Virus record (IMG/VR): IMGVR_UViG_2734482574_000014
Direction: 5' to 3' (one strand)
DNA length: 39,870 nt
Origin: a virus
Taxonomy: Duplodnaviria; Heunggongvirae; Uroviricota; Caudoviricetes
Part shown: in pieces, positions 2,904 through 39,870 of the stretch
Layout of the letters: each line of letters opens with the position of its first letter
Numbering within the stretch: position 1 is the first letter of the stretch
Made by a program: the position numbers and the translations under genes
Notes under the pieces: model-generated
Database searches by the model: none
What the model was told of the DNA's origin: nothing
The model's input: only the letters and a program-made list of their open reading frames with translations

Positions 2904-4958
2904 TTACGCGTTATTCACTTCCACCACGATACTGTCAATCAGTACCGGGTAAGTCGCATTTTTAGTGATATCGGTCACGCGCAACTTGTCTGCCGTAAAC
3001 GTGCCGACCGGAGACTGCGACAGCATGAATGGTGTCCCGTCCTTACCATCAATGACCGGCGTCACCTCAATACTGTTGTTACCGGCAAAACGGAAGCCCA
3101 GCGTATGCCATTCGTTATTAAATGCGCCGAATGACCCCAGCTTCGTGTTCTGCGCCGTGTTTCCTTTGTGATACATCACGTTAAGGTCTGTGGCATCGCT
3201 CTGTACGTAGAACGATGCCAGCAGGTTATGACCGGCATTTCCTTCCAGAGTAACCCCTTGCGGCAGGGCAGAAACCGGCCAGTACAGCGCCAGTGCGTAC
3301 TGATTAGCCGTAAGCGCGCCATCGAGTTTAAAACGACAACTGACAAGACCACCTTTACCCAGCAGGTCCGCACCATTACCAGCATCATGCTCAAGGTACC
3401 AGGGGGCTCTTCCTGTTTCCTTGGTCAGTTTCATTGCCTTACCCCCGCTGGCTCCGGCATCATCCACGATTTGAGCCTTGCCACCTCCGGCAGCCCAACC
3501 CTGTGGTGTCAACCGTCCTTCAGACTCAGATGCCCGGTAAGCAAATAGCGTACTCATCGTCGTGGTGTCTGCGGGTGGCGTGGACGGTTTTGATGGTGTA
3601 TCAGGTGACGGCTTCTCATCCGGTGGTGTCACGGTCTGCCCACGCATCAGTTCAGCCGTGCGCCCTGCATGGAGCATAATAGCTGAGGCCAGACGGTCTG
3701 AAATGACGCCCCTGCGTGCCCATGAGCTGAAATGGCTGTCACGCTGTGTCGAAACAAAACTGCCCTGGGTTCGGGATGCTGCACCGTAATACCCGACAGC
3801 CACAATATCCGGGTCTTCCGCCGGAGCATTCGTTGGCGTGCTCTGTCCATTCTCATCCGTCAGGAACGGTACAAAGAAAATTTTCTGTGCTTCCTTGCCT
3901 TTGTAGCCACCGTATACTGCCTCATATTTATCGGTGCCAGCGTTTTTCCAGTAATACGTGGTATCACCGCAAATCCACGGCACCGTGGTGGCATTTCCAC
4001 TCACGCACTGCGCAGCAAGCGGAGCCAGGTCAGTTCTGAACTGCTGAACCATGGCCGTGAATAAACTATTATGCTGCTGGCTTCCTGAGGCAAGGTCTGC
4101 CTCTCCCTGCATCCAGACCACAGCCAGAAGTTTGTTTTTCGGGTTTTTCGCCAGCGCGACTTTGGTGCGGCTTACCAGGTCCTGATACAGAGGTTTACCG
4201 GCCCCCCAGCGTGAAGAATCAGCGGAAGCACCGCTGGCCTCACTGAATGAGCCGTCGGCTCCAGTGGTGAATGCTGACCCGCCACGACAACAGGGCACCA
4301 GAAGTATCCCGGCATTCTGTGGGATATAGGGAAGCAGTTTTTTGGCAATATGCAACCCCTGACCGACAGTCCCGTACTGGCCTTTTGCCAGATCAGCTTT
4401 CGGGTGGTTTATCCCGCTCATATCCTGAACATCATGCAGGCAGTGGTCTGCCGGAATGATGTCGTTGTATGTACACGACGTACCGTTGGGCGTTACCGTA
4501 CTGCGGCGTGCCAGTTGCTTAATGCGTGGGTCCGGGCGGTCAAACGAATCCGGTAACGGCAGCCCCTCGCCGTAGGCCATGCCATTTGACTGACCCGCGA
4601 GAATGACAACAAAGTAATATTCCGGCTCTGAACTGCTGCCATTCGTGCTACCGGAAGGCCCGGCGTTATCCGGTGCATTCCAGTCGGAGGGCGTGAGCGT
4701 TCCGGCCACGTCAGATGTGATTGGAATGATGCCAGTCACGCCTGAACTGGTGATTTCTGCACTGGGATTACCGGATACCGGCATTACCCATAATGGCTCT
4801 TTCGTGCTGAAGCGGATCACGCAGTCTGCGAAGGTGATCCCCCCTTTATTACCCGAAGGGCGGAAAGGGCTTTCAATAAATGCCACCGTGCCACCGGCAA
4901 CCTTGACTGAAAACTCTCCGGGCATGGCGGAGAGCATTTTCCACTTGGAGTCTGACAT
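2904..4958 (-). CDS. multidomain carbohydrate esterase: SGNH/SASA-type (sialate O-acetylesterase-like) catalytic domain, Pro/Thr-rich linker, C-terminal putative carbohydrate-binding domain (684 aa)
   Basis: Motifs ILAGQSNGMAYGEG (GQSN block) and VVWMQGEADLA (QGE-D block) typical of SASA/SGNH esterases; linker TPPDEKPSPDTPSKPSTPPADTTT; architecture recalls prophage NanS-p esterases of enterobacteria (from memory). Confidence 0.7.
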   Translation of the reverse strand: MSDSKWKMLSAMPGEFSVKVAGGTVAFIESPFRPSGNKGGITFADCVIRFSTKEPLWVMPVSGNPSAEITSSGVTGIIPITSDVAGTLTPSDWNAPDNAGPSGSTNGSSSEPEYYFVVILAGQSNGMAYGEGLPLPDSFDRPDPRIKQLARRSTVTPNGTSCTYNDIIPADHCLHDVQDMSGINHPKADLAKGQYGTVGQGLHIAKKLLPYIPQNAGILLVPCCRGGSAFTTGADGSFSEASGASADSSRWGAGKPLYQDLVSRTKVALAKNPKNKLLAVVWMQGEADLASGSQQHNSLFTAMVQQFRTDLAPLAAQCVSGNATTVPWICGDTTYYWKNAGTDKYEAVYGGYKGKEAQKIFFVPFLTDENGQSTPTNAPAEDPDIVAVGYYGAASRTQGSFVSTQRDSHFSSWARRGVISDRLASAIMLHAGRTAELMRGQTVTPPDEKPSPDTPSKPSTPPADTTTMSTLFAYRASESEGRLTPQGWAAGGGKAQIVDDAGASGGKAMKLTKETGRAPWYLEHDAGNGADLLGKGGLVSCRFKLDGALTANQYALALYWPVSALPQGVTLEGNAGHNLLASFYVQSDATDLNVMYHKGNTAQNTKLGSFGAFNNEWHTLGFRFAGNNSIEVTPVIDGKDGTPFMLSQSPVGTFTADKLRVTDITKNATYPVLIDSIVVEVNNA

Positions 4959-5043
4959 CGTCTTTTCTGCCTGTTTCTGAATTAAACAGAGTCAGAATAG
5001 CGACCGCTGAAAAATATGTGTTTTGCGGAAATTCAAAAAAGCG

Positions 5044-5616
5044 TCACGGTACTTTTGGTGACGGAGCTGGTGAGGCAGGAAAATAACGATAAAGGGTGGA
5101 AAGGCCAATATCAAATATCAGTGCGATTTGTTTACGGGACTCGCCATTAGCCAGCAAACGGGCGATTTGCTCCCGCTCTTTCTCTGTCAGTTTCTGAGGT
5201 CTGCCGCCATGACGCCCCTGAGCACGGGCAGCAGCAAGACCCGCGCGTGTACGTTCAATAATGAGTTCCCGCTCCATTTCCGCCAGCGCGCCCATTATAT
5301 GGAAAAAGAAACGTCCCATGGGAGTGGATGTATCAATATTGTCCGTAATGCTGCGGAAGTTAACGCCGCGTTGCCGGAGTTCTTCTGTTAAAAGGACAAG
5401 GTGCTGCATACTGCGTCCAAGGCGATCCAGTTTCCAGACCAGCAGGGTATCCCCTGGCCGGAGTCGCTTTAATGCGCGTTTAAGTCCGGGACGCTCCCTT
5501 GTCTTACCGCTTATTCTGTCTTCGAAAAACAGCTCACATCCTGCACATTCCAGCGCATTTCTTTGTAGCGCCGTATTCTGGTCATTTGTTGACACCCTGA
5601 TATACCCAATCAGCAT
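5044..5616 (-). CDS. gin: serine DNA invertase (Gin/Hin/Pin/Cin family)
   Basis: N-terminus MLIGYIRVSTNDQN...GDTLLVWKLDRLGRS...MGRFFFH(I/V)MGALAEMERELIIERT is near-identical in pattern to Mu Gin (from memory); adjacent to invertible fibre segment. Confidence 0.9.
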   Translation of the reverse strand: MLIGYIRVSTNDQNTALQRNALECAGCELFFEDRISGKTRERPGLKRALKRLRPGDTLLVWKLDRLGRSMQHLVLLTEELRQRGVNFRSITDNIDTSTPMGRFFFHIMGALAEMERELIIERTRAGLAAARAQGRHGGRPQKLTEKEREQIARLLANGESRKQIALIFDIGLSTLYRYFPASPAPSPKVP

Positions 5617-5681
5617 ACGATTTCCTTATTATAAAAAGCCGGAATTGTCGCATGAGGAATAAAACAGAGTTAATCCTGGCT

Positions 5682-5707
5682 TTCCTGAAAACCTCGGTTT
5701 ACGGGAA
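5682..5707. other. gix-like inversion crossover site (invertase-proximal): TTCCTGAAAACC-TC-GGTTTACGGGAA
   Basis: 26-bp imperfect palindrome resembling Mu gix / Salmonella hix sites; central TC dinucleotide matches inverted GA core of site at 6999..7024. Confidence 0.6.
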
Positions 5708-5821
5708 ACGGTAAACAGGGCGGCGAATGCCCTGCCATCGGACGGCACCGCCGTTGCCGCGAACAGGCTGGCAAATGCCCACACAATTAATGGTGTTCCC
5801 TTTGACGGGACGCAGGATATC
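5694..5821. repeat. inverted repeat copy B (~125 bp) bounding the invertible segment
   Basis: 5696-5765 is ~68/70 identical to reverse complement of 6941-7012; both copies encode [25 protein letters not shown]...[12 protein letters not shown]. Confidence 0.8.
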
Positions 5822-6046
5822 ACTATCTCATCAGGAACAGTAACCGCCATAAGACTGGGGTCGGTGACCGCACATATGCCCGGAACATGGGAAAGCTGGG
5901 ATCTGAATCTGGGGGGCGGCAATGTTCTTACCGGAATTAAAGTACAGGATGTCGGTAAGAATACGGCAGATAACGTCGGCGGCGTGTATTACCGGCCGTT
6001 GCAGTATCTGTTAAATGGAGCATGGGTGACGGCTGCAAGTATATAA
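5696..6046 (+). other. promoterless alternative tail-fibre C-terminal cassette (Sv'-like), silent in this orientation
   Basis: Plus-strand frame encodes [16 protein letters not shown]...YYRPLQYLLNGAWVTAASI, sharing the conserved block and a similar tip with the expressed fibre C-terminus (...[19 protein letters not shown]); no start codon or RBS at its 5' end. Confidence 0.7.
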
Positions 6047-6055
6047 TGATATTCA

Positions 6056-6073
6056 GAAGGCCTTCCGGCCTTC
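6056..6073. terminator. hairpin between convergent Sv' cassette and chaperone gene (GAAGGCC-TTCC-GGCCTTC), followed by TTTATTA on plus strand
   Basis: 7-bp perfect stem seen directly; weak U-tract. Confidence 0.35.
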
Positions 6074-6077
6074 TTTA

Positions 6078-6599
6078 TTACTGTGGCTGCTCAGGCCATT
6101 TAATGGCGTTAAATTCAGCTTCTGTTTTAATGGCGGGTAGTTCCATTTTCTTCACCTGACTGATGTATGCCATCCATTGGGTAAGTGCTGCTCTGTCTTC
6201 ATCGCTGATGGTGCCCAGTTGTAGCTCCGTTCTCCAGTCATTAATTTTTTCATATGCCTGATTAAGATATGACTGGCGCATTGCTTCCAGTTTTCTTGCG
6301 TAGTTAACCGGAATACGGGAGATTATGCCATTATCAAACTTCCAGTTTCCTGAAATATCCGTGCCTTCAGGGAGTTCATCGACCTCAACCACAGAAAACC
6401 CCGCAGGATACAGCGCCGAGGCGTCCTGTGATATTGAGCAGATAACGCCGCTGTCAGGTGTTATGCAAAGTTTATATTTTTTGGTGAATAATGGCAGGGA
6501 TTCGTAGAAATCCTTACCATCTTCACTCTGGAAATACTGAACATTATTACCATATGGCATATTTTCAGGATAATAACGGGTTATATTTTTTAGTTCCAT
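6078..6599 (-). CDS. tail fibre assembly chaperone (Mu U / Tfa-like)
   Basis: Immediately downstream of tail fibre gene, inside invertible segment; size ~170 aa; typical Tfa-like composition. Confidence 0.75.
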   Translation of the reverse strand: MELKNITRYYPENMPYGNNVQYFQSEDGKDFYESLPLFTKKYKLCITPDSGVICSISQDASALYPAGFSVVEVDELPEGTDISGNWKFDNGIISRIPVNYARKLEAMRQSYLNQAYEKINDWRTELQLGTISDEDRAALTQWMAYISQVKKMELPAIKTEAEFNAIKWPEQPQ

Positions 6600-6650
6600 A
6601 AAATCCTCCTGGAAATAAATCTGTTTTAAAATATATTATTTACTGACTAT

Positions 6651-7541
6651 TTATAACTGAGATACCGTAATCCATGTACCTCCGACTAATTTTTGCAGGG
6701 GTCTGAATGCTATAAAATCGTTTGAAGCATCAACTTTACTGTCAATCTGCAGGCCTGCCATAACATTACCGTACGCAGAGTAATATGCCCCACCGTACAT
6801 TACCTGCCTGTTCTCTGCTCCCAGCCTGATATCCTGGATATATCGGGAATCCGCATCCTGCTGTGTTATACCAGAAGTGATGTTTATGTCCTGCGTCCCG
6901 TCAAAGGGAACCCCATTAATATTTCTTGGGGTGGCGAGTCTATTCGCGGCAACGGCGGTGCCGTCCGATGGCAGAGCATTCGCCGCCCTGTTTACCGTTT
7001 CCCGTAAACCGACGTTATCGATAAAAGCCCCTTTATCCGGAATGTCTGCGCCGTTCTGCTCCCTGCGCAGGTAACGGTTATCACCTTCGCTTTTGCTGTA
7101 AACATCCAGATTATTACGGGCGGTTCCCTTATTCTCCAGGTCGGCGAGATTCTGATCCTTCGCCAGGGCATTAACGTCAGCGGGACCAAGACTGTTTTTT
7201 GTGGCAAGCGTCCCCAGACCAAGATAACCACGGGCCAGACGCTGGGCCTCCGCACCGGCATCAGCAATTTCTTTCAGGTTATTTTTCCGGGAAAAGGCAT
7301 TCGCAGCGATAATGGCTTTAATGGACAGCGTAAGCTGGTTTAACTGCGCCTTATCCGGCTGAATACTGGCTTCAGCCAGAATATTCAGCAGTTCGGCCTG
7401 GAGAATATTCAGCCAGTCCTGACCAATCCAGCTGATACCTTTTTGTCCGTCACCTTCGGTAAACCAGGTGGTGGTATTACTCTGCGCCGGTGCCAGCGCA
7501 GGCATATTCGCCACGCCGGAATTATTATCAACATGAAACAT
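6651..7541 (-). CDS. tail fibre protein (S-like; constant N-terminal part outside, variable C-terminal part inside the invertible segment), currently expressed variant
   Basis: Gene spans crossover site at 6999-7024; C-terminal part duplicated in alternative form on opposite strand. Confidence 0.75.
6885..7012. repeat. inverted repeat copy A (~125 bp) bounding the invertible segment
   Basis: Reverse complement matches 5696-5821 with a short divergent patch. Confidence 0.8.
6999..7024. other. gix-like inversion crossover site (fibre-internal): TTCCCGTAAACC-GA-CGTTATCGATAA
   Basis: Half-sites resemble TTATCNAAAACC-type invertase sites; core GA is the inverse of TC at 5694-5695. Confidence 0.6.
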
Positions 7542-8101
7542 TAAATAGTCTCCTCTTCATGGCTGTTTGCATAAACGTAAATAAACGTCTGCCATGCAGG
7601 CTTATAACGGTTCAGAATACATTCCAGCGCACCGCCTTCATAAATACGCAGCGGCGTGAGAATATCATCCAGCACATTCATATTCCGGTAGCCGGTTTCA
7701 CTGTTAATCGTGACAATACTGACCCACTGCGAATCCGGTGAGGGCTGAATGTCAATCTGATAACCAAACTCCGCCGCAAACCGGATATAAAATTCACGGT
7801 TCAGCGAGGGCTTCATCCGGTATTTATTTCCGGCATAACGCTGTCGCTCCGTGAGGGTGGCTCCGGCCATATCACACTCGGGAAGCCCGAGATAACGCTC
7901 CCAGTCTTCCAGCAGCAGGCGCGACGTGTCAGGGAAACGCTCGGCAAGCAGCTGTTTACCCGTCCAGGATACACGCGCTGTCGAATGACTGAGGCCCAGA
8001 CATAATGATGCCAGTACGGATGACGGACGCTTGTCCCATGCCAGCCCGTCAGGCAGTAACTGCAACAGGGCGCGCTGATGCGGGGTCAGGGTTACAGCCA
8101 T
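7541..8101 (-). CDS. baseplate/tail protein (Mu gp48-like)
   Basis: Position between baseplate J-like gene and tail fibre; ~186 aa. Confidence 0.55.
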
Positions 8102-9174
8102 GTGATTTCTCCTACCGTCAGCAGCTCACTGTCTCCCGCCTGAACTGACGTCAGCGGACTGCGCACTTCAAAATCCTCCAGATTTTTCACCCCTGCCACC
8201 GCCCGCCAGAAAGACGACGGCAGAACCAGACCGCCGGGCCGGGATTCGTTATACAACAGGTCGGTCAGCGCCTGTTTTACGGCCGCCTGATTCTCCGGTG
8301 TTTTCGGGATGATCCTGATGCTGAAGGGCACCGGCTTATTGGTCAGTTTAAACACGGTCACCGTCGGCCCCAGAGGCTGTCCGACAGGCTGGCCGGTCGC
8401 CGGATCATCATGACTGCGGATATAATCCGCCACCCGCTGAACATCACCGTCACCGGGGAAAATATCCGGGTTATTATCCTGAACAAACGTTACCCCCACG
8501 CTGCCCGCCTGCGGCCATTCCGGGCGGCACCATGCCCGCGTCACGCCCGGCACTTCACGCGCCCAGCGTTCAAAATCATACTGCGTGCCGCCGGACGGTG
8601 GATTCTGCACCCGGAAAACCAGACGGGAAAGCAGCTCCGGCACGGTTTCCACATCCGCACCACCGGTGATCCCCGTTCCGGTCACCGTGGCCGTCTGGTT
8701 GATCCCCGCCTGCGGTGTGATAAATGTCAGTTTTGTCCCTGCCGGGGCATTCCCCGCACGACCGGCACTTTCGGCTTCCACACTGACATTCAGCGTACCG
8801 GCCTTACCGGTCAGGGAGGTGGTGATACGGTAAACCACGCCATCACTTCGCTGGAGAAGCACACCTTCCTTGATCCCCGCATCCGTGGTCAGCATCAGCT
8901 GAACCGGCCCGTCCCCCCGAGAGGCAGGCTTACGCATGACGCCCCAGAATGCACAGTGTTTCAGCAGTTCGGCTTCATCGGCTTCGGTCGGGATGATCTG
9001 ACGCGCAATCCAGGCCAGATGCTCATGCTCCTGAGCAGATAACCCTGCCTGAGCGTAAGCAATGGCATTCAGGGTGGTTTCATTCACACCCGGCTGCGAG
9101 CCGGGCAGGCGCTGGCTGATATCCTGCTGTGTCTGCGTGATTAACTGTGCCAGCGGTAAAGGCTGATAAGGCAT
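8092..9174 (-). CDS. baseplate J-like protein (Mu gp47-like)
   Basis: Size (~360 aa) and position in baseplate cluster. Confidence 0.65.
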   Translation of the reverse strand: MPYQPLPLAQLITQTQQDISQRLPGSQPGVNETTLNAIAYAQAGLSAQEHEHLAWIARQIIPTEADEAELLKHCAFWGVMRKPASRGDGPVQLMLTTDAGIKEGVLLQRSDGVVYRITTSLTGKAGTLNVSVEAESAGRAGNAPAGTKLTFITPQAGINQTATVTGTGITGGADVETVPELLSRLVFRVQNPPSGGTQYDFERWAREVPGVTRAWCRPEWPQAGSVGVTFVQDNNPDIFPGDGDVQRVADYIRSHDDPATGQPVGQPLGPTVTVFKLTNKPVPFSIRIIPKTPENQAAVKQALTDLLYNESRPGGLVLPSSFWRAVAGVKNLEDFEVRSPLTSVQAGDSELLTVGEITWL

Positions 9175-9611
9175 TACTCCCCCTTAAGATCAGCATAAAA
9201 AATCATGGGCCTCACTGAACCATCAGGCAGGGTTATGCGCACCGAAAGCGCCAGCCGCGCGTGTCCCACACGTTCTGCATGACAGACCACGGATGACGCC
9301 ACGCCATCCTGACTGAGCCAGCCCAGCGCCTCATCCGCGTAAGCACGGGCACGGCTTATCACCGAGGCCAGCGTTTTTTCCCGGCTGAGAAGCCACAGAC
9401 GGGAGCCAATGGGGCGCGGGCGAAAACTGTCTCCCCACCATCCCCGGCGGTCGCGCGTACCGTCAGGGATTTCATCCGATGCCAGCGCCCGGCGGTCAGT
9501 AAACAGCGAAATCAGAACGGCCGTCAGCAGACTGTCATCCGTCAGCAAGTCGGCACCGTTCAGTTGCAGCGAACCGCACCCCTGATCCCATACAATTGCA
9601 ATATCAGCCAT
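9174..9611 (-). CDS. baseplate protein (Mu gp46-like); start moved to internal MADIAIVWDQ
   Basis: Track ORF 9174..9755 overlaps upstream gene; internal Met at 9611 gives typical ~146-aa protein with ATGA-type overlap. Confidence 0.6.
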   Translation of the reverse strand: MADIAIVWDQGCGSLQLNGADLLTDDSLLTAVLISLFTDRRALASDEIPDGTRDRRGWWGDSFRPRPIGSRLWLLSREKTLASVISRARAYADEALGWLSQDGVASSVVCHAERVGHARLALSVRITLPDGSVRPMIFYADLKGE

Positions 9612-10218
9612 TCTCCGGCGCTCCTGTCTTACTGCCTTTGCCGTTATCCTGATGCACATGGCCGGAATAGGTGATCCCGGCAATAACGGCATCAGACATC
9701 GTGAACAGCCCGTCTGATTTACCTGTACCATCAAGCACGAAATTACCCTTAACATGCAGGTTTTTATCCACCGTCACATTGCCCGTAAAGGTGGCCTCCG
9801 GCGTATCCACCCGCATCCCCTCATCGGCGTAAATCTCCAGCATTTTGCATGTCACAATAATGCGACCATCCTTTGTTAACCGTATCCGGTGCCCCTCATG
9901 GTGATACACCCCCGTATCTCCGGCTGTGAGTCCGGTCGGGCGGCTGCGCCGGTCTTCCACCACAAGCACCACAGTCTGATCCCGCTGTCCGCCCAGACAG
10001 GCAAAAAAGGTTTCCGCACCCGGCAGGGGAACGCTGATCTGCCCGTACTGCTGGGGACGCTCCACATCATCAAAGGTTTCGCCGTCCATGCCGGTGAGCT
10101 GCACATTCTGCATTTTCAGTTCGTCATGTGTGCCGGTCAGAACGCCCCGGCCAAACAACAGGCGAATACCGCGCGTTACCGGGGCAATCAGGCGGCTGAA
10201 CACTTCATCATTCATCAA
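9604..10218 (-). CDS. baseplate assembly protein V / spike-like (Mu gp45-like)
   Basis: ~200 aa, position after P-like gene. Confidence 0.6.
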   Translation of the reverse strand: MMNDEVFSRLIAPVTRGIRLLFGRGVLTGTHDELKMQNVQLTGMDGETFDDVERPQQYGQISVPLPGAETFFACLGGQRDQTVVLVVEDRRSRPTGLTAGDTGVYHHEGHRIRLTKDGRIIVTCKMLEIYADEGMRVDTPEATFTGNVTVDKNLHVKGNFVLDGTGKSDGLFTMSDAVIAGITYSGHVHQDNGKGSKTGAPENG

Positions 10219-11332
10219 AGCTGATCCCCTGTTTTTTCATCTGCTGGCGAATAAAGGCATCAACATCGTCACCGGAACCACCCCGGCCCTTACTGTCCGG
10301 CTCTGCCGGAACGATAAAGCCGTCACGCGGTGCCAGTACCAGCCGGGTGACTTCCCCGTTATGTTCATCAAGTAAAAACTCCACCTGACAGACCAGCAGT
10401 TCAGTCTGTTCTATACCGAAACGCAGGGCTGAAACACCGGTCAGCAGATTGACATCCCATAACCGGCCATCATCCCGGAACCAGCCACGCACGGTGGCAG
10501 AAAACCGTTCTGAACGGGCAATCGCACGGCGCATTTCACGCAGGGCACGCTGCCGTGCACCGGTGGTGTCTGTCTGTTGATCGGCGAGGATGATTTTCGA
10601 CCGGTAGCGGCCGATCTGCTCATCACTGATGACGCCCACAGGTGCTGCCAGACGGGCGGCGGATTCGCTGTCTCCCCGTTTGCCACCACCGCGCCCGTGT
10701 CCCCGGACACGGTATTCGCTGTATCGTCCTCGCCAGTCCGTGTTGTAATCGGCATCAAGCAGGTTATCTCCCAGCACCAGTCTGTCCGTCTGCTGGCTTC
10801 CTGCCTGGGTGAACACCAGATCGCCGTCAGCATTACTGGTCACCAGCACCCCGCGATGCCGGGCAGCACGGGTCAGCGCATCCGCCACGGTTTCTGAGTT
10901 TTCCAGCGTAAAAGAGCTGAAGGGGCGTGCAGCCGTGTCGTCGTTAACCTGCCAGCGCACGGCTATCCCGAAGGGCGCACATAAATCTGCGGCAATCTGT
11001 GCCAGCGTCCGGTTGCGCCACTGGCTGCCGGGATGGATGGCGGCACAGTCCACCAGGTCGCCGGTTTTATCCCGACCGCTGATGCTGATCTGATGACGGG
11101 TTGCACTGATCCGCTGACTGACCTGATCCAGCCAGCCACTGATGACCGTCTGCCCGTTAATTCTGAGCGTCAGGGACTGACCGGTTCGCAGGGCTGAGGG
11201 GATGCGCTCACCGGGCAGCATCAGCCCCAGTTCAAACGACCCGGCCAGATGCTCCAGCGAGCGACGGACGCTGACCGTCAGCCAGCCGGAAAAAATACTG
11301 CCACCGATATACAGTTCAATCCTGCTGCTCAC
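10208..11332 (-). CDS. tail protein P-like (baseplate hub, Mu gp44-like)
   Basis: ~374 aa, immediately after N-like gene. Confidence 0.6.
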   Translation of the reverse strand: MSSRIELYIGGSIFSGWLTVSVRRSLEHLAGSFELGLMLPGERIPSALRTGQSLTLRINGQTVISGWLDQVSQRISATRHQISISGRDKTGDLVDCAAIHPGSQWRNRTLAQIAADLCAPFGIAVRWQVNDDTAARPFSSFTLENSETVADALTRAARHRGVLVTSNADGDLVFTQAGSQQTDRLVLGDNLLDADYNTDWRGRYSEYRVRGHGRGGGKRGDSESAARLAAPVGVISDEQIGRYRSKIILADQQTDTTGARQRALREMRRAIARSERFSATVRGWFRDDGRLWDVNLLTGVSALRFGIEQTELLVCQVEFLLDEHNGEVTRLVLAPRDGFIVPAEPDSKGRGGSGDDVDAFIRQQMKKQGISFDE

Positions 11333-12674
11333 TGATCACCTCCACGCTGCGGCCACCCGGAACAAAAACCGGATCGGGGATATTGTTTCTGCGGACAAAA
11401 TACTGCCAGCGACTGCTGTTGCCGGTGGCACGGTACAGCGTGACCAGTGCCGGTTCGGTGGTGCGAACCATGACCTGAAAAGCACCGGGAAGATGCACGC
11501 TCCGTGTGGTTAAATCTTCTGTCAGCGCAAGCCCTGCATCACGTAATGCAAGGGCAGTCCCGGTATAGCCCTGTGCGGACAGATCCAGCACCTGTTGTTC
11601 CATGGCATCGCTCAAATCCCGGTTGATACGCTGCACATCAGCAGAACTTTCCAGCCAGGCCAGTCCGCCCGAACGGTCAGTATCCTGAACGTGCGTCGTA
11701 TTCTGCCGGATGACCTGATCCAGCAGTTTTCCGAGCGTCTGTGCCTGCGACACCAGGGTTGCACTCTGCATCACGCTCCGCAGCAGACGGATATTTTTCT
11801 GTGCCGCAGGCGTCAGGCCAATCAGGCGCTGTGGATCATCCTGTTCGCTGAGGGTGTAACGCAGGGAGGAAAGTGTGCGGTACAGCTGCGGCATGGCCTG
11901 CTCTGCCATGCTGTCACGGTTTGTGGTCAGGCTGCCGGACGGCGTTCCGGCTTTTCCGGTCAGAGACAGGGAAGGATCGCCGGGCAGCCCGGTCAGCACG
12001 GCAAACATTCCGGCCAGCGATTCAGCCATGCGACGGGGCGCATTAATCAGGGCGGCGGCATTGCCTTTCAGGGCAGTAAAACTGGCCGTAAAGGCACTGA
12101 TATCCTGCACAATCCCCATCCCCGAAACGGCATTCTCCAGTGCATCAATCTTATCGCTGATGGTGTCGGTCATGGCCTGTACATCATGCAGACCGTCTGA
12201 AATCACCGTCCAGCCGTCTGAAAGCGTGTTAAACAGCTGATTCATTGCTGAGCCGCTTTTCTGCTCCAGCGCAGCTGCCGTATCTTCTGCCACCGCAGGG
12301 GCGGTATCGTCACTGGCGGGGATCACGTTGATCGTGAACTCAACCGTTCCCTGCTCGCTGGCGTTATAACGGCTTTCAAAGCTGTTTATCAGCACGTTTA
12401 ACGTGCCGTAATCCGGGTGCATCAGTTCACCGGCACCGGGTGCACGCAGCGCATCACGCAGGCGGCTTCGCTGTGTCTGAAGATCGTCTCCGGTCACCAG
12501 AACCGTGAATGTGAACTCCGGGAGTTTTGGCCCCAGATCATCCGCACCGCCGCTTTCACGCAGTGGGTATTCACGGCGCACAATGTTACGTCCGCCCCGT
12601 TCCCGCTGCTCCTGATAAACCAGGAACGGTACGCCACGAAAGGAGCCACGCCCCGGCGTGTCAGTAGAGGCCAT
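11316..12674 (-). CDS. DNA circularization protein N-like (Mu gp43-like)
   Basis: ~452 aa, immediately downstream of tape measure gene. Confidence 0.6.
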   Translation of the reverse strand: MASTDTPGRGSFRGVPFLVYQEQRERGGRNIVRREYPLRESGGADDLGPKLPEFTFTVLVTGDDLQTQRSRLRDALRAPGAGELMHPDYGTLNVLINSFESRYNASEQGTVEFTINVIPASDDTAPAVAEDTAAALEQKSGSAMNQLFNTLSDGWTVISDGLHDVQAMTDTISDKIDALENAVSGMGIVQDISAFTASFTALKGNAAALINAPRRMAESLAGMFAVLTGLPGDPSLSLTGKAGTPSGSLTTNRDSMAEQAMPQLYRTLSSLRYTLSEQDDPQRLIGLTPAAQKNIRLLRSVMQSATLVSQAQTLGKLLDQVIRQNTTHVQDTDRSGGLAWLESSADVQRINRDLSDAMEQQVLDLSAQGYTGTALALRDAGLALTEDLTTRSVHLPGAFQVMVRTTEPALVTLYRATGNSSRWQYFVRRNNIPDPVFVPGGRSVEVISEQQD

Positions 12675-34645: not shown

Positions 34646-34873
34646 TTAGCTGACTTGTTTCGCACCAACAGAACGGCATATTCCGCTGTAAACTTCTGTC
34701 GCACCTTCGCGATCAAGTCCGGCAGATATCACCATTCGTGTGCGGTCATTAAATTCAAAAAGTAAATCGCCACATTCTTTATTTTCGGCCAGTGAAATCA
34801 CCTTCACGTTATCGAAATTAACCAGGTAAAAGCGTCCGTAAATATCAGGAATATTAAATACCGCCATAATCAC
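34646..34873 (-). CDS. small protein at Mu kil position (75 aa)
   Basis: Immediately downstream of B-like gene, as Mu kil. Confidence 0.4.
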   Translation of the reverse strand: MIMAVFNIPDIYGRFYLVNFDNVKVISLAENKECGDLLFEFNDRTRMVISAGLDREGATEVYSGICRSVGAKQVS

Positions 34874-35811
34874 ACCTGTGAGAGTAATTCAGGGTTGGTA
34901 TAAACCTCTTTAAAGGCCGCATTAATATGTTTTTCTGTCAGCGCCGCGCCTTCACCGCTGGCGGTGAGCCACGCCTGGTTAAGCGTATGTGTCAGAACGC
35001 GTAACGCTCCCGGCTTTTCAGCGATAGCCTGCATGACGGCCAGCTCGGCCTCACCACTGATCCCCCACGCCATGGCAATGGCCAGCACATCCGCCTTTTT
35101 GGCCTTGCGAAGTTGTTTTGTACGGGCAAGACGGCTGAACAGGCGCGATAAATCATCAAAGGCGCGGCGTCCACCTTTAAACAATCCGCGCGGGTTACCA
35201 ATAAGCACCATCCCGATCCCCGTGGCGTCCTGAATTGCCCGGAGTTGCTCCAGACCGTCAATACCAAGATGATCCGCCTCATCCACAATCACCAGTCCAC
35301 GCGTTCCCATCAGGCGACGGCGGATGGCGCGGGATAATGCCCCTTTGTTCGCGCGGGTGTAATCAATCCCCAGCGCATCGGCCAGCTCCAGCAGACACTC
35401 CGTGACGCTGGAGTGCGCGGGTGACAGGGTGATCATCCAGGTGTTTGGTTGCTCCTGGCAGTAATTACGGGCAGTGGCCGTTTTACCCACACCCGGTACG
35501 CCCACAATAACGTTAATACAGCCCATCAGGCGAACCGCCTGAAACAGTGCGCGCAGCTCCTGGACTGTCTGAGTTTCCACAAACTGCGGCGGTTCCGGCA
35601 GTGCGCTTTGTTTATTCCAGTTCTCATACCAGGAGCGCAGGGAAGCAGCCACAGCAGCGTTATCGCCTTTATATTTTCCCTTACGGAAAGCCGATAATGT
35701 GCCGTCGGAAATTCCCGCCTCTCTGGCGATGGCATACTGCGTCAGTACGCCGCCATCAATAAGTTCATCAATGGTCTTGATTACATCGTTAATATCGGTC
35801 ATATTATTCAC
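34870..35811 (-). CDS. B: MuB-like ATP-dependent target DNA activator
   Basis: 313 aa with Walker A GVPGVGKT, directly after transposase gene. Confidence 0.85.
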   Translation of the reverse strand: MNNMTDINDVIKTIDELIDGGVLTQYAIAREAGISDGTLSAFRKGKYKGDNAAVAASLRSWYENWNKQSALPEPPQFVETQTVQELRALFQAVRLMGCINVIVGVPGVGKTATARNYCQEQPNTWMITLSPAHSSVTECLLELADALGIDYTRANKGALSRAIRRRLMGTRGLVIVDEADHLGIDGLEQLRAIQDATGIGMVLIGNPRGLFKGGRRAFDDLSRLFSRLARTKQLRKAKKADVLAIAMAWGISGEAELAVMQAIAEKPGALRVLTHTLNQAWLTASGEGAALTEKHINAAFKEVYTNPELLSQV

Positions 35812-35884: not shown

Positions 35885-37972
35885 TCAGGCCAGCGGATCA
35901 CTTTCTTTTAATTTCGCTTCGAGCAGTTGCAATCCCCGCTGGAAATTACGCTCGTATTCTTCATCAGGTTCATCGTCAGCGACCGGTTGCTGAACGGTCA
36001 CCGTATTACCCACAGGGCGGTATATGTTTTCCAGCCAGGGCTCCTGCGGCTTGTGCTCCAGCACGTTGACAACCTCATCCTCGGCATCACGGATTTTTTC
36101 CTCTGCGCGTTTACGCATGCCTTTAAGGCGCTGCTGCTGTTTGTAGTATTCCGCGCTGACAGGGAAGGCTTCGCGTTTATTGCCGTCCCATACCGCCTCG
36201 CAAATCACGCTGCCATCCGGGCGGCGCACGGTAATTCGTTCGGCATCATGAATGTCATAGCTGATAAGTACCTTACGGCCATGCTCGTCACGCAGCTCGG
36301 GCGCGTAGTAAATATTATTCAGCCAGCGTATTTCACAGCGTCTTACAGGGCGCTCCACCATCGGCCGGAACATATCCCGCAGTTCAACATCGGACAGCCA
36401 TTCAATTTCCGTGTCCTCTTCCGCCAGGCGTTTTTTTCTGAACTCCGCCGGGCTGTAATGTTTACCGTTCGGCTTCATGGGTAATTCATCGTGCGGCCGG
36501 TTGTTGTACCACTCAACACCGTCACGAATGGCATCAATCAGTTCAGACCAGGACGGTAAATCACGCATCGCTGACTGCTGCCGGGCGTTCAGCCGTTTGC
36601 CCTGTTGCAGGGCACTGAATGCCGAGCGTAAATCGCGGTTGGTTTTACGTAACGTCTCGCGATCTGCTCCTTTCCCGAAATAGGTGCGGTATTTACGGGC
36701 TATGCGCATCGGTAATGTGCGGTTAAGCCGTTCGATAATGCCCCGTCCCTGCGGATTACCGGCAATCCCTGTCGGGTGATTAATCCCCAGTCGTGGCAGT
36801 ATCCCCACAATCTCCTTATCCAGGACGTCGGCGGTTTCCCCGGAGCCATTATCCGAGTAATACAGAAACGGTTTGCCATGATGGCGAATACCGTGCTGTA
36901 TGGCACCGGCTACGGCGAAAACATTTTCAGCCAGGTCAAGGCTCCAGCCCACCACAAAGCGCGTGCCACCGTCGATAACAAAGGTCACTTCCGGTGCGAA
37001 TGGCCGCCCGTGAACCGGGTGCGCGCATTTCAGCTTCATGCCGTGACCGTCACCAATCCAGACATAATTCACCGGCATTCTGGACCAGTCGCGGCGCGTG
37101 AATCCCTCAAGCTGACGGTATTCACTGCCAGTTACCCGGCCTTTTTGTTTCACCACTTCCGGCAGTTTCTTCATTGCGCGGCGAATGGTGTCATAAGAGG
37201 GCATGATATCGAGCATATAAGGCTCATCAGCGTGCCGGTGCTGCCATTCAGCAACAAAATCCTCGTAAGCCTCGGTCATTGGTCGGCCGTTTGACTGGCG
37301 ATACTGCGCCAGAAATTCGGGCAGCCAGTTAATATCTTCGGCTTTTATTTCCTGGCGTTTACCCGGTGCCAGTAAAAGCAGGCGTTCAGCGGCGTTCTGT
37401 GCCTTGTTAAAGGCCGCAATCCAGCGTTTCAGCGTGATTTCACTCAACGCGCGGCTGTTTCCCTTTTTGGCGTTCGCCGTCTCAACCATTGCCACAATGC
37501 GCTCGTCCAGTTGTGATCGTGCCAGGCTGTTAACGAGGAACCGGATAGCTTTAGCGCAGCTGAAACCGGGTTGTTGCGTGAATTTCAGCACCTCACTGAC
37601 GATCGCAATGCGTGCGTCTGCCACCTGGCGCTGGTTTTCAGTCAGGGCATTGAGGCGTTCGACCATCAGTTGTGGTGATCCGCGATATGCCTCCACCGCA
37701 TCAACCACGGCAGACGAGCGTCTGGCCTTTGTCACCACCGGAGCCGGTGATTCATCGGCTTTTTGCGTCATCAGTTGCAGGGCATAACGTTCGCGTAATG
37801 CCTGCTGTGTCACTTCAGGTAAACAGTCAATGCTGTATTCAAAACCTTTAGCGCCTTTCTTGCGGCGTCTGCTGGTTTCGCTGGTTGCATACTTCCTGAT
37901 TGAATAGCGAACGCCTTGCTCCGTTCCCGGCATCCCCGGTAATCCAACCAGTTCTTTAACTGAAGCAAACAT
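35885..37972 (-). CDS. A: MuA-like DDE transposase
   Basis: 695 aa; position between ner and B. Confidence 0.9.
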   Translation of the reverse strand: MFASVKELVGLPGMPGTEQGVRYSIRKYATSETSRRRKKGAKGFEYSIDCLPEVTQQALRERYALQLMTQKADESPAPVVTKARRSSAVVDAVEAYRGSPQLMVERLNALTENQRQVADARIAIVSEVLKFTQQPGFSCAKAIRFLVNSLARSQLDERIVAMVETANAKKGNSRALSEITLKRWIAAFNKAQNAAERLLLLAPGKRQEIKAEDINWLPEFLAQYRQSNGRPMTEAYEDFVAEWQHRHADEPYMLDIMPSYDTIRRAMKKLPEVVKQKGRVTGSEYRQLEGFTRRDWSRMPVNYVWIGDGHGMKLKCAHPVHGRPFAPEVTFVIDGGTRFVVGWSLDLAENVFAVAGAIQHGIRHHGKPFLYYSDNGSGETADVLDKEIVGILPRLGINHPTGIAGNPQGRGIIERLNRTLPMRIARKYRTYFGKGADRETLRKTNRDLRSAFSALQQGKRLNARQQSAMRDLPSWSELIDAIRDGVEWYNNRPHDELPMKPNGKHYSPAEFRKKRLAEEDTEIEWLSDVELRDMFRPMVERPVRRCEIRWLNNIYYAPELRDEHGRKVLISYDIHDAERITVRRPDGSVICEAVWDGNKREAFPVSAEYYKQQQRLKGMRKRAEEKIRDAEDEVVNVLEHKPQEPWLENIYRPVGNTVTVQQPVADDEPDEEYERNFQRGLQLLEAKLKESDPLA

Positions 37973-39174: not shown

Positions 39175-39493
39175 TGGTTATATGTCGCCAGTCGATACCT
39201 TCCAGCAGCATCGCCAGCTGCGCCTGTGTAAGGAACACTTTGCCATCACGGGCTGACGGCCAGGCGAAGCGCCCACGCTCCAGCCGTTTGGTCAGGAGGC
39301 ACAGTCCGTCACTGGTGGACCACAGCAGTTTAACCTGACTGCCGCTGCGGCCCCGGAAAATGAAAACATGGCCGGACATGGGATCGTCTTTCAGCGCCGT
39401 CTGTACTTTCGCAGCCAGGCCGTTGAAGCCATTTCTCATATCGGTGATACCGGCAACCAGCCAAATTTTGATCCCGGAAGGTAACGGGATCAT
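39170..39493 (-). CDS. tnpB: IS66-family accessory protein TnpB (orf2)
   Basis: Product ...LVAGITDMRNGFNGLAAKV...HVFIFRGRSGSQVKLLWSTSDGLCLLTKRLERGRF typical of IS66 orf2; stop codon abuts or lies within prophage terminal repeat. Confidence 0.85.
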   Translation of the reverse strand: MIPLPSGIKIWLVAGITDMRNGFNGLAAKVQTALKDDPMSGHVFIFRGRSGSQVKLLWSTSDGLCLLTKRLERGRFAWPSARDGKVFLTQAQLAMLLEGIDWRHITR

Positions 39494-39870
39494 CGCTTCA
39501 GTTCCTGTATCAGCAGAGTCAGGAGCTTTTCGCTGACATTGCCATTGAAGCGGAGCGTCCCGTGCCGGAACGTTACCTCACAGCTGATACTGAGGGTTTT
39601 CGGGTCCTCTGCGAGCGATTCTGGCTGTTCGGCAGCTGCATCGAGAGTCACAGGAAGTAGCTGGGGGCTCTCTGAAGAAGGTAATAGCAGCTTTCCCTCG
39701 CGCCATTGTTGTCGCCATTTGAACAACAGATTGGCGTTAATGCCATTTTCAAGAGCAAGTTTTGAGATGGATATCCCGGGTTCACAGGAGGCAGCAACGA
39801 GCTGCTGTTTAAATTCGGGAGGATAATTAGGGCAGCCTTTTCGCCTGCCGGGAGTCACATTTTTCTGCAT
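39490..39870 (-). CDS. tnpA: IS66-family TnpA (orf1); start at window edge
   Basis: Small HTH protein overlapping tnpB start (ATGA-type coupling), typical IS66 orf1 arrangement. Confidence 0.8.
   Translation of the reverse strand: MQKNVTPGRRKGCPNYPPEFKQQLVAASCEPGISISKLALENGINANLLFKWRQQWREGKLLLPSSESPQLLPVTLDAAAEQPESLAEDPKTLSISCEVTFRHGTLRFNGNVSEKLLTLLIQELKR

Follow-up and report, generated by a model that had tools for sequence, protein, structure and literature searches.

A miniature Mu-type inversion switch with a single tail-fibre chaperone gene in an Sp18-type prophage

The stretch of DNA analysed here (the window) comprises 39,870 nucleotides (nt) of a virus of the Caudoviricetes, IMG/VR record IMGVR_UViG_2734482574_000014, and is an apparently complete Sp18-type Mu-like prophage. 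Between the constant part (Sc) of its Mu S-like tail-fibre gene and a gin-like invertase gene lies a segment of 1,318 bp, measured core to core, which is a working miniature inversion switch of the phage Mu type that exchanges the tip of the prophage tail fibre. The kind of switch is already known. The segment carries one alternative fibre tip on each strand and one tail-fibre assembly chaperone gene (tfa), which follows only one of the two tips. The features of the segment and its borders are the following.

5044-5616, minus strand: gin-like serine DNA invertase gene, 190 amino acids (aa); Resolvase 1.6e-51 and HTH_7 4.9e-15; PHROG DNA invertase 1.9e-94
5682-5707: gix-like site adjoining gin; core TC on the plus strand (GA on the minus strand); reverse complement equal to Mu gix at 21 of 26 positions
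5687-5835: left inverted-repeat arm, coding for the shared fibre block
5696-6046, plus strand: silent alternative C-terminus of the fibre (Sv', tip type X), lacking its own start codon and not followed by tfa
6055-6074: GC-rich terminator-like hairpin between the convergent cassettes, with a run of A on one side and a run of T on the other
6078-6599, minus strand: tfa, the sole tail-fibre assembly chaperone gene, 173 aa; Caudo_TAP (PF02413) 4.8e-19
6600-6650, minus strand: AT-rich spacer of 51 nt from the Sv stop to the tfa start, with a possible weak tfa promoter (best sigma-70 match 8/12)
6651-7541, minus strand: expressed tail-fibre gene, 296 aa (PHROG 1833 tail fibre, 4e-129), made up of the constant part Sc (7013-7541) and the variable part Sv of tip type A (6651-7010)
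6871-7019: right inverted-repeat arm
6999-7024: gix-like site within the fibre open reading frame (ORF), at the Sc/Sv boundary; core GA; equal to Mu gix at 22 of 26 positions

Two 26-bp gix-like sites with inverse cores had been named in a preliminary description of this DNA, and both are present where it had placed them. The site next to gin reads TTCCTGAAAACC TC GGTTTACGGGAA, the site within the fibre ORF TTCCCGTAAACC GA CGTTATCGATAA, and the GA core is common to them and to Mu gix, which is TTCCTGTAAACCGAGGTTTTGGATAA at both Mu sites (read from NC_000929). The sites are in inverted orientation: seen from within the segment and reading outward, each core is GA. A search pattern was made from an 18-nt degenerate Mu gix core with 2 positions loosened to suit both window sites; it matched only twice in the 39.9-kb window, on opposite strands, and in none of 100 shuffles, which excludes chance for the site pair, yet the pattern is not independent of the sites. 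The flanking inverted repeats, earlier estimated at about 125 bp, consist of two blocks that jointly span about 149 nt: 5687-5772/6934-7019 (86 nt, 93% complementary) and 5786-5835/6871-6920 (50 nt, 84% complementary). The hairpin between the cassettes has an 8-bp stem and a T-rich tail on the plus strand (z = -3.1), and equivalent hairpins were found after tfa in relatives.

Directly outside the segment, as the same description had it, lies the invertase gene. Its product, a small serine recombinase, combines an N-terminal catalytic domain of the resolvase type with a helix-turn-helix at the C-terminus, the build of the Din family, and shares 73.9% identity with Mu Gin over 184 aa.

The fibre protein aligns at both ends with that of Mu, residues 1-198 with Mu S residues 1-191 (PDB 5yvq_A, 2e-44), and the last ~66 residues with the distal tips of Mu S (5yvq; 1e-4) and Mu S' (8ju3). 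For the silent tip X the best match was the phiTE short-fibre tip (9cuy, 4e-10), followed by the Mu S' and S tips; P1-type tips are homologous to it at 52% identity, and P2 and SfMu also have homologous tips, where only the tips were compared. Tips A and X of the window differ strongly in sequence. The strand assignments made before were confirmed, with the expressed fibre C-terminus and the chaperone on the minus strand and the alternative cassette, an open frame lacking a nearby start codon, on the plus strand. When strands were exchanged in silico at the core dinucleotides, which was the fusion test set beforehand, the cassette joined Sc in frame with zero frameshifts and gave an uninterrupted fibre of 293 aa. 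Sc lies outside the segment and is fused in frame to either variable C-terminus, as is characteristic of a Mu G-type element.

The other half of that definition, a Tfa gene of its own after each alternative C-terminus, was found neither in the window nor in any Sp18-type relative. The window Tfa matches Mu U (PDB 5yvq_B, 4.2e-16) and is 32% identical to Mu U'. Searches of the whole window by tblastn with the window Tfa, Mu U and Mu U' as queries returned no second tfa, only 6078-6599, and the claim that a single chaperone gene is present was confirmed both here and throughout the prophage family. The position directly 3' of the tip that it serves, at a gap of 51 nt, holds for tip A only. A small novel chaperone ORF after cassette X was considered and ruled out, as the distance from the X stop to the tfa stop is 31 nt.

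To see the segment in nature, we surveyed 5,426 complete Escherichia coli genomes, of which about 230 (~4%) carry the Sp18-type family. Junctions were counted at ≥80% coverage for the window allele pair, and the state obtained above by inversion in silico, Sc-X, proved the more frequent, with 24 records against 6 for the window state, Sc-A. The allele pair of Sp18 gave 184 records of Sc-Y against 15 of Sc-B. Altogether, the chaperone-less tip was switched on in 208 records and the tfa-linked tip in 21. Both orientations were seen in near-identical prophages, and two oppositely oriented copies coexist in each of the strains DLI.5a, TOE17 and AST46. In strain JE86-ST05 (locus L002) the repeat arms moved together with the segment and the exchange occurred between the outer half-site and the first diagnostic single-nucleotide difference of the repeat; it therefore maps to the site, as a crossover at the core predicts. 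Going by this natural variation among genomes, the segment inverts at its sites, and the earlier interpretation as a Gin/gix-type invertible fibre switch is supported by its occurrence in both orientations across public E. coli genomes.

A different kind of exchange was observed in strain NCCP 13905 (L001), where comparison of 3683-3830 and 4880-5025 with window positions 5682-5835/6871-7024 revealed an inverted middle and two unmoved arms. Here the exchange fell outside the gix core, in the second repeat block, within its 23-nt identical stretch GTTCCCTTTGACGGGACGCAGGA, and it left chimeric tips (…ATPRN… fused to the X tip). The pattern points to homologous recombination or gene conversion between the arms. 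It should also be added that many short-read contigs of IMG/VR (L049, L052-L057, L061 and L064) stop 500-660 nt past the fibre start, that is, at the inverted repeat; these ends fit assembly breaks caused by the repeat, mixed orientations in the cultures, or both.

The layout with one tfa was followed through 32 Sp18-type loci of IMG/VR in which tip and tfa were detected, and through the E. coli loci examined (a species-wide genome scan gave 11 loci, 2 of them informative, and the IMG/VR scan served far better). Gene order was invariably Sc, tip, tfa, tip, gin, with one tfa in every locus. Tips of types A, B and C always lie co-directionally 5' of tfa, a position never taken by X or Y. Of six possible pairings, five were observed (A+X, A+Y, B+Y, C+Y and C+X). 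On this comparative evidence the one-tfa layout is maintained and not accidental. It is also a derived state, because the outgroup relatives L066 and L067 (65-71% identity in Sc) carry two convergent tfa genes each; L067 has the full classical G-type order of fibre, tfa, tfa', Sv' and gin, with inverted repeats of 222 nt. Homologous tips in the P1-like phage, POP15, the Actinobacillus phage and Mu have an annotated tfa within 0-5 nt, and in Escherichia phage 19-1-2 an unannotated ORF of 194 aa lies 3' of the homologous tip.

Tips X and Y form a distinct subgroup with the motif ADN[VI]GGVYYRP. Their cassettes are intact in every locus examined, and the ratio of nonsynonymous to synonymous substitution rates (dN/dS) is 0.09-0.15 in divergent pairs with dS of 0.34-1.4, a constraint like that on the tfa-linked C type. 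Judged from these sequences, the chaperone-less tips are functional and under strong purifying selection, and are no relics.

A part of the family has lost the ability to switch. This locked lineage (L025, L026, L031-L033, L035, L041, L048 and L051) has a single common deletion junction; the deletion, equivalent to ~5110-6650 of the window, removed gin, the gin-side site and the tfa-linked Sv, so that X or Y is fixed in the on state and tfa is convergent with the fibre gene. Nevertheless, tfa is intact in 9/9 loci, with dN/dS of 0.11-0.23 at dS of 0.10-0.43. The 235 nt upstream of it diverged by just 0-8% and include a sigma-70-like promoter matching at 10/12 positions (ATGATA-17-TATAAT), located 120 nt upstream of tfa.

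These observations can be brought together in the following mechanism. The Gin-like invertase would exchange strands at the 2-bp cores of the two inverted gix-like sites and so flip the 1,318 bp. As one site lies within the fibre ORF, the constant N-terminus of 176 aa, which docks to the baseplate, is joined to either tip. With tip A, the state of the window, tfa follows the tip; with tip X no tfa follows. Tips A and X are homologous distal domains of the Mu S type, of ~75 aa each, which presumably bind different receptors and would give different host ranges. The hairpin between the convergent cassettes may end the late transcript in either orientation. The single Tfa would be a generalist that also serves tip X, made regardless of orientation, its promoter either moving together with tfa or reading in from the gin side, and both forms of the fibre would be assembled as a result. 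We hold this whole reading, a miniature G-type host-range switch with a generalist Tfa for both tips, to be probable, albeit with considerable reserve.

A Tfa that is shared and independent of orientation is favoured because of three features: its alleles are uncoupled from the tips, a spacer precedes the gene, and the locked lineage keeps it. The window-type Tfa occurs with both A and C tips, and A occurs with two Tfa alleles. Across lineages the N-terminal domain of Tfa is ~85% conserved; in 2019 North and colleagues reportedly found that this domain of the Mu protein contacts the fibre tip. The spacer before tfa measures 51-120 nt in the lineages studied, compared with 0-5 nt in Mu, P1, POP15 and the Actinobacillus phage. 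The preliminary description had pointed out that the alternative fibre would have no co-transcribed chaperone after inversion, and in terms of gene order the puzzle is real. That it would have no chaperone at all is probably wrong, since the comparative evidence suggests a shared Tfa; a generalist Tfa that acts in trans is the probable solution of the puzzle.

The origin of the spacer may be seen in the C-type locus L005, where positions 4049-4170 between tip and tfa hold what was once the 3' end of another tip cassette, now decayed (…INGSWRTAGSA*), as is also the case in locked loci. Such a remnant directly documents the replacement of tips by recombination at the conserved ING-W motif, the old end staying behind as non-coding spacer. 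A candidate box for the Mu C protein (the late activator) before tfa, …AGACCCCTG…, turned out to be leftover tip coding sequence (RPLQ codons) and was rejected as a regulatory element.

Several points weigh against a shared Tfa made in both orientations, or limit how far the data carry it. Upstream of tfa, on its own strand, no sigma-70-like site of at least 9/12 was found in the window or in the B-type locus L007; C-type L005 has 9/12 sites 161 and 261 nt upstream, but these lie within Sv coding sequence. A permissive scan of the pre-tfa spacers produced promoter candidates of 8/12 at best, and the spacers cannot be aligned between the A, B and C lineages, i.e., they are unconserved. Nor did the alignment of the gin-to-site intergenic region across lineages, inspected by eye, reveal a convincing rightward promoter from the gin side. 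The promoter of the locked lineage spans the deletion junction and is therefore not transferable to the invertible form, and the divergence of tfa in that lineage could have been imported by recombination instead of accumulating in place. Clonally related genomes, above all of O157:H7, inflate the orientation counts. Finally, for the Fis-dependent recombinational enhancer (sis), expected in the 5' part of the invertase gene, there is a tentative candidate: two Fis-like, AT-centred G-N13-C 15-mers, a degenerate motif, occur 46 bp apart at nt 94 and 140 of gin, and Mu gin has such 15-mers at the same positions.

With regard to the bias itself, in Mu the orientation that permitted infection passes to new lysogens. 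The excess of X and Y in the on state thus agrees, at the least, with a role of these two as the tips that infect E. coli.

The strongest competitor to a generalist Tfa, which we regard as unlikely though deserving attention, is that tips X and Y are chaperone-independent, or need only catalytic help from the Tfa of a co-resident prophage, and that the Tfa encoded here acts with A, B and C only. In that case Tfa would perhaps stay bound in the receptor-binding tip, and the two orientations would amount to a capped and an uncapped fibre. The separate subgroup formed by X and Y, the fact that they are never co-directional with tfa in the Sp18-type relatives examined, the terminator-like hairpin directly 3' of X and the failure of consensus scans to find a convincing tfa promoter all agree with it. 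So does the length of the fibre, 293 aa compared with 504 aa of Mu S, since a short fibre has less repetitive shaft that needs register, and in phage Sf14, whose baseplate is Mu-like, the fibres come with no homologue of Tfa (PMC11821841). What speaks for the generalist Tfa instead is that the nearest X/Y-like tips elsewhere, in the P1-like phage, POP15 and a Citrobacter braakii prophage, precede a tfa, that the locked lineage, having only X or Y, keeps its tfa intact under purifying selection, and that Tfa alleles are not matched to A, B and C.

The second alternative is a decaying G segment, from which the counterpart of U' was deleted, so that particles made with X on would be fibre-less or non-infectious and the alternative cassette a relic. 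The derived nature of the one-tfa state, with two convergent tfa genes in L066 and L067 and a classical arrangement in the latter, would suit such a history, as would the frameshifted gin or disrupted fibre gene of some copies. Against this stand the intact X/Y cassettes, with dN/dS of ~0.1 at dS of up to 1.4, the persistence of the layout through reassortment into five tip combinations, the prevalence of X/Y-on (208 versus 21 records) and its fixation in the long-lived locked lineage, and we consider decay very improbable. Equally little weight can be given, by analogy with cryptic prophage e14, where PinQ-driven inversion of a fibre segment yields the anti-adsorption protein StfE2 (PMC12529663), to the idea that inversion serves the host by making one fibre chimera that blocks adsorption of other phages, for although this Pin-type precedent exists and invertases act in trans between elements, the fibre gene here belongs to a late operon that is complete, in a Mu-like prophage that appears intact, with MuA, MuB, Mor/C, lysis, head, tail, baseplate and com/mom genes all found, and no independent promoter of the fibre gene was detected.

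In its most specific form, the proposal of a generalist Tfa states that one chaperone, expressed either way, assembles two tips, and that the chaperone-less tip is the principal form infecting E. coli; this we put forward tentatively, as a serious possibility that falls a little short of being probable. If true, the pairing of tip and Tfa in cis, taken as the rule for Mu, P1, P2 and e14, would not be required, and tips could be swapped with no transfer of their chaperone. Fibre engineering and host-range prediction usually handle tip and Tfa as an inseparable cassette. The family represents natural tip swapping with one kept chaperone in ~4% of complete E. coli genomes, including Sp18 of O157:H7, with a chaperone-less tip that is conserved and usually switched on. 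Should one Tfa indeed serve five types of tip, it would offer a portable, promiscuous chaperone together with a minimal swappable receptor-binding module of ~75 aa. If, on the other hand, X and Y fold unaided, their comparison with A, B and C could reveal the basis of chaperone dependence in Mu-type fibres.

Some details concern individual copies and annotations. The invertase gene is frameshifted in L003 (strain DLI.5a, 3045-3616) and L024 (STEC2017-197, 1002-1492); the second DLI.5a prophage copy might act in trans. In loci L004, L005 and L024 the gin-side site (3097-3122 in L004) has lost 1 nt from its outer half, and in L004 (O157:H7 ECP19-198) the fibre gene is disrupted as well (4127-4547). 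In identical genomes RefSeq annotates a 65-aa 'hypothetical protein' at window positions 5629-5826, minus strand. This ORF is probably spurious, because it runs antisense across the silent tip cassette and the inverted repeat; its region is where the promoter and leader of gin must be.

Outside the segment, the following genes place the switch in a Mu-like prophage.

678-1614: com and mom
7541-8101, minus strand: Mu gp48-like baseplate wedge protein, which docks the fibre; Phage_Mu_Gp48 7.5e-22
34870-35811: MuB
35885-37972: MuA

Beside gp48 a gp47 baseplate gene is present, and the window also codes for a repressor-like helix-turn-helix protein, Mor/C and lysozyme; head and tail genes are present according to the annotation of a 99.7% identical genome. 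Between gin and com/mom, at 2904-4958 on the minus strand, lies the gene of a 684-aa protein with a SASA/SGNH carbohydrate-esterase domain and a C-terminal DUF6645. It is kept in all relatives (PHROG 143), and Mu has no counterpart there. The protein could be a glycan deacetylase, either virion-associated or acting in lysogenic conversion, and would then be a second determinant of host range. The prophage is flanked by insertion sequence (IS) remnants, a C-terminal fragment of an IS66-family transposase at 1-459 and an IS3-type HTH_Tnp_1 ORF at 39490-39870, both on the minus strand.

Among known systems, the G segment of Mu is alike in its Gin-type invertase (74% identity), located outside the segment with com/mom beyond, in the 26-bp gix-type sites with GA core, one of which lies in the fibre ORF at the homologous spot (Mu …NLGLQETVNRA…), and in homologous Sc, tip domain and Tfa. 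It differs in having two tfa genes within 3.06 kb, whereas the window has one in 1.3 kb, and the much shorter length asserted in the preliminary description was borne out (1,318 bp against ~3,060 bp). The variable parts are ~117 aa long in the window and ~320 aa in Mu, because the central Sv shaft (~200 aa in each) is missing from the former. The gap before tfa is 2 nt in Mu and 51 nt here, and a terminator-like hairpin between the cassettes is a feature of the window only. Moreover, the window has ~3.4 kb extra between gin and com/mom, which code for the SASA-esterase/DUF6645 protein and for DUF1378 and DUF826 proteins.

A close known relative is Sp18 of E. coli O157:H7 Sakai, which belongs to the same prophage family and has the same architecture, with 85-93% DNA identity in flanking genes; it carries tips B and Y, as against A and X of the window. 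Already in 2009 a report (PMC2669165) remarked on its invertible host-specificity region, calling it 'distinct from those of Mu'. While the switch that had been described from the window is real, it is therefore no one-off, the Sp18-type region being known since that report and present in ~230 of the 5,426 E. coli genomes. In the literature covered, which is incomplete, no description of the one-chaperone layout or of its conservation was found.

The C segment of P1 with cin (compared through a P1-like record) and the P segment of e14 with pin likewise use a Din-family invertase to swap fibre C-termini, but they have one tfa per alternative tip, in e14 tfaE and tfaP (PMC12529663). The prophage of Citrobacter braakii ATCC 51113 (L012; IMG/VR L076) resembles the window in having one internal tfa and an expressed Sv with no co-directional tfa; it differs in a longer Sv (fibre of 472 aa) and in that its Y-like tip is the tfa-linked one, and it has reached the one-tfa layout in a different configuration. 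Within 6001-11486 of this locus we also noticed a possible third gix-like site (9190-9223) and, past the invertase, a collagen-repeat fibre gene with a tfa of its own. Set beside these systems, the mechanism and components of the element in the window are known ones, of the Din-family or Mu G type, and the element itself is annotated in public genomes; its conserved one-chaperone layout is the oddity.

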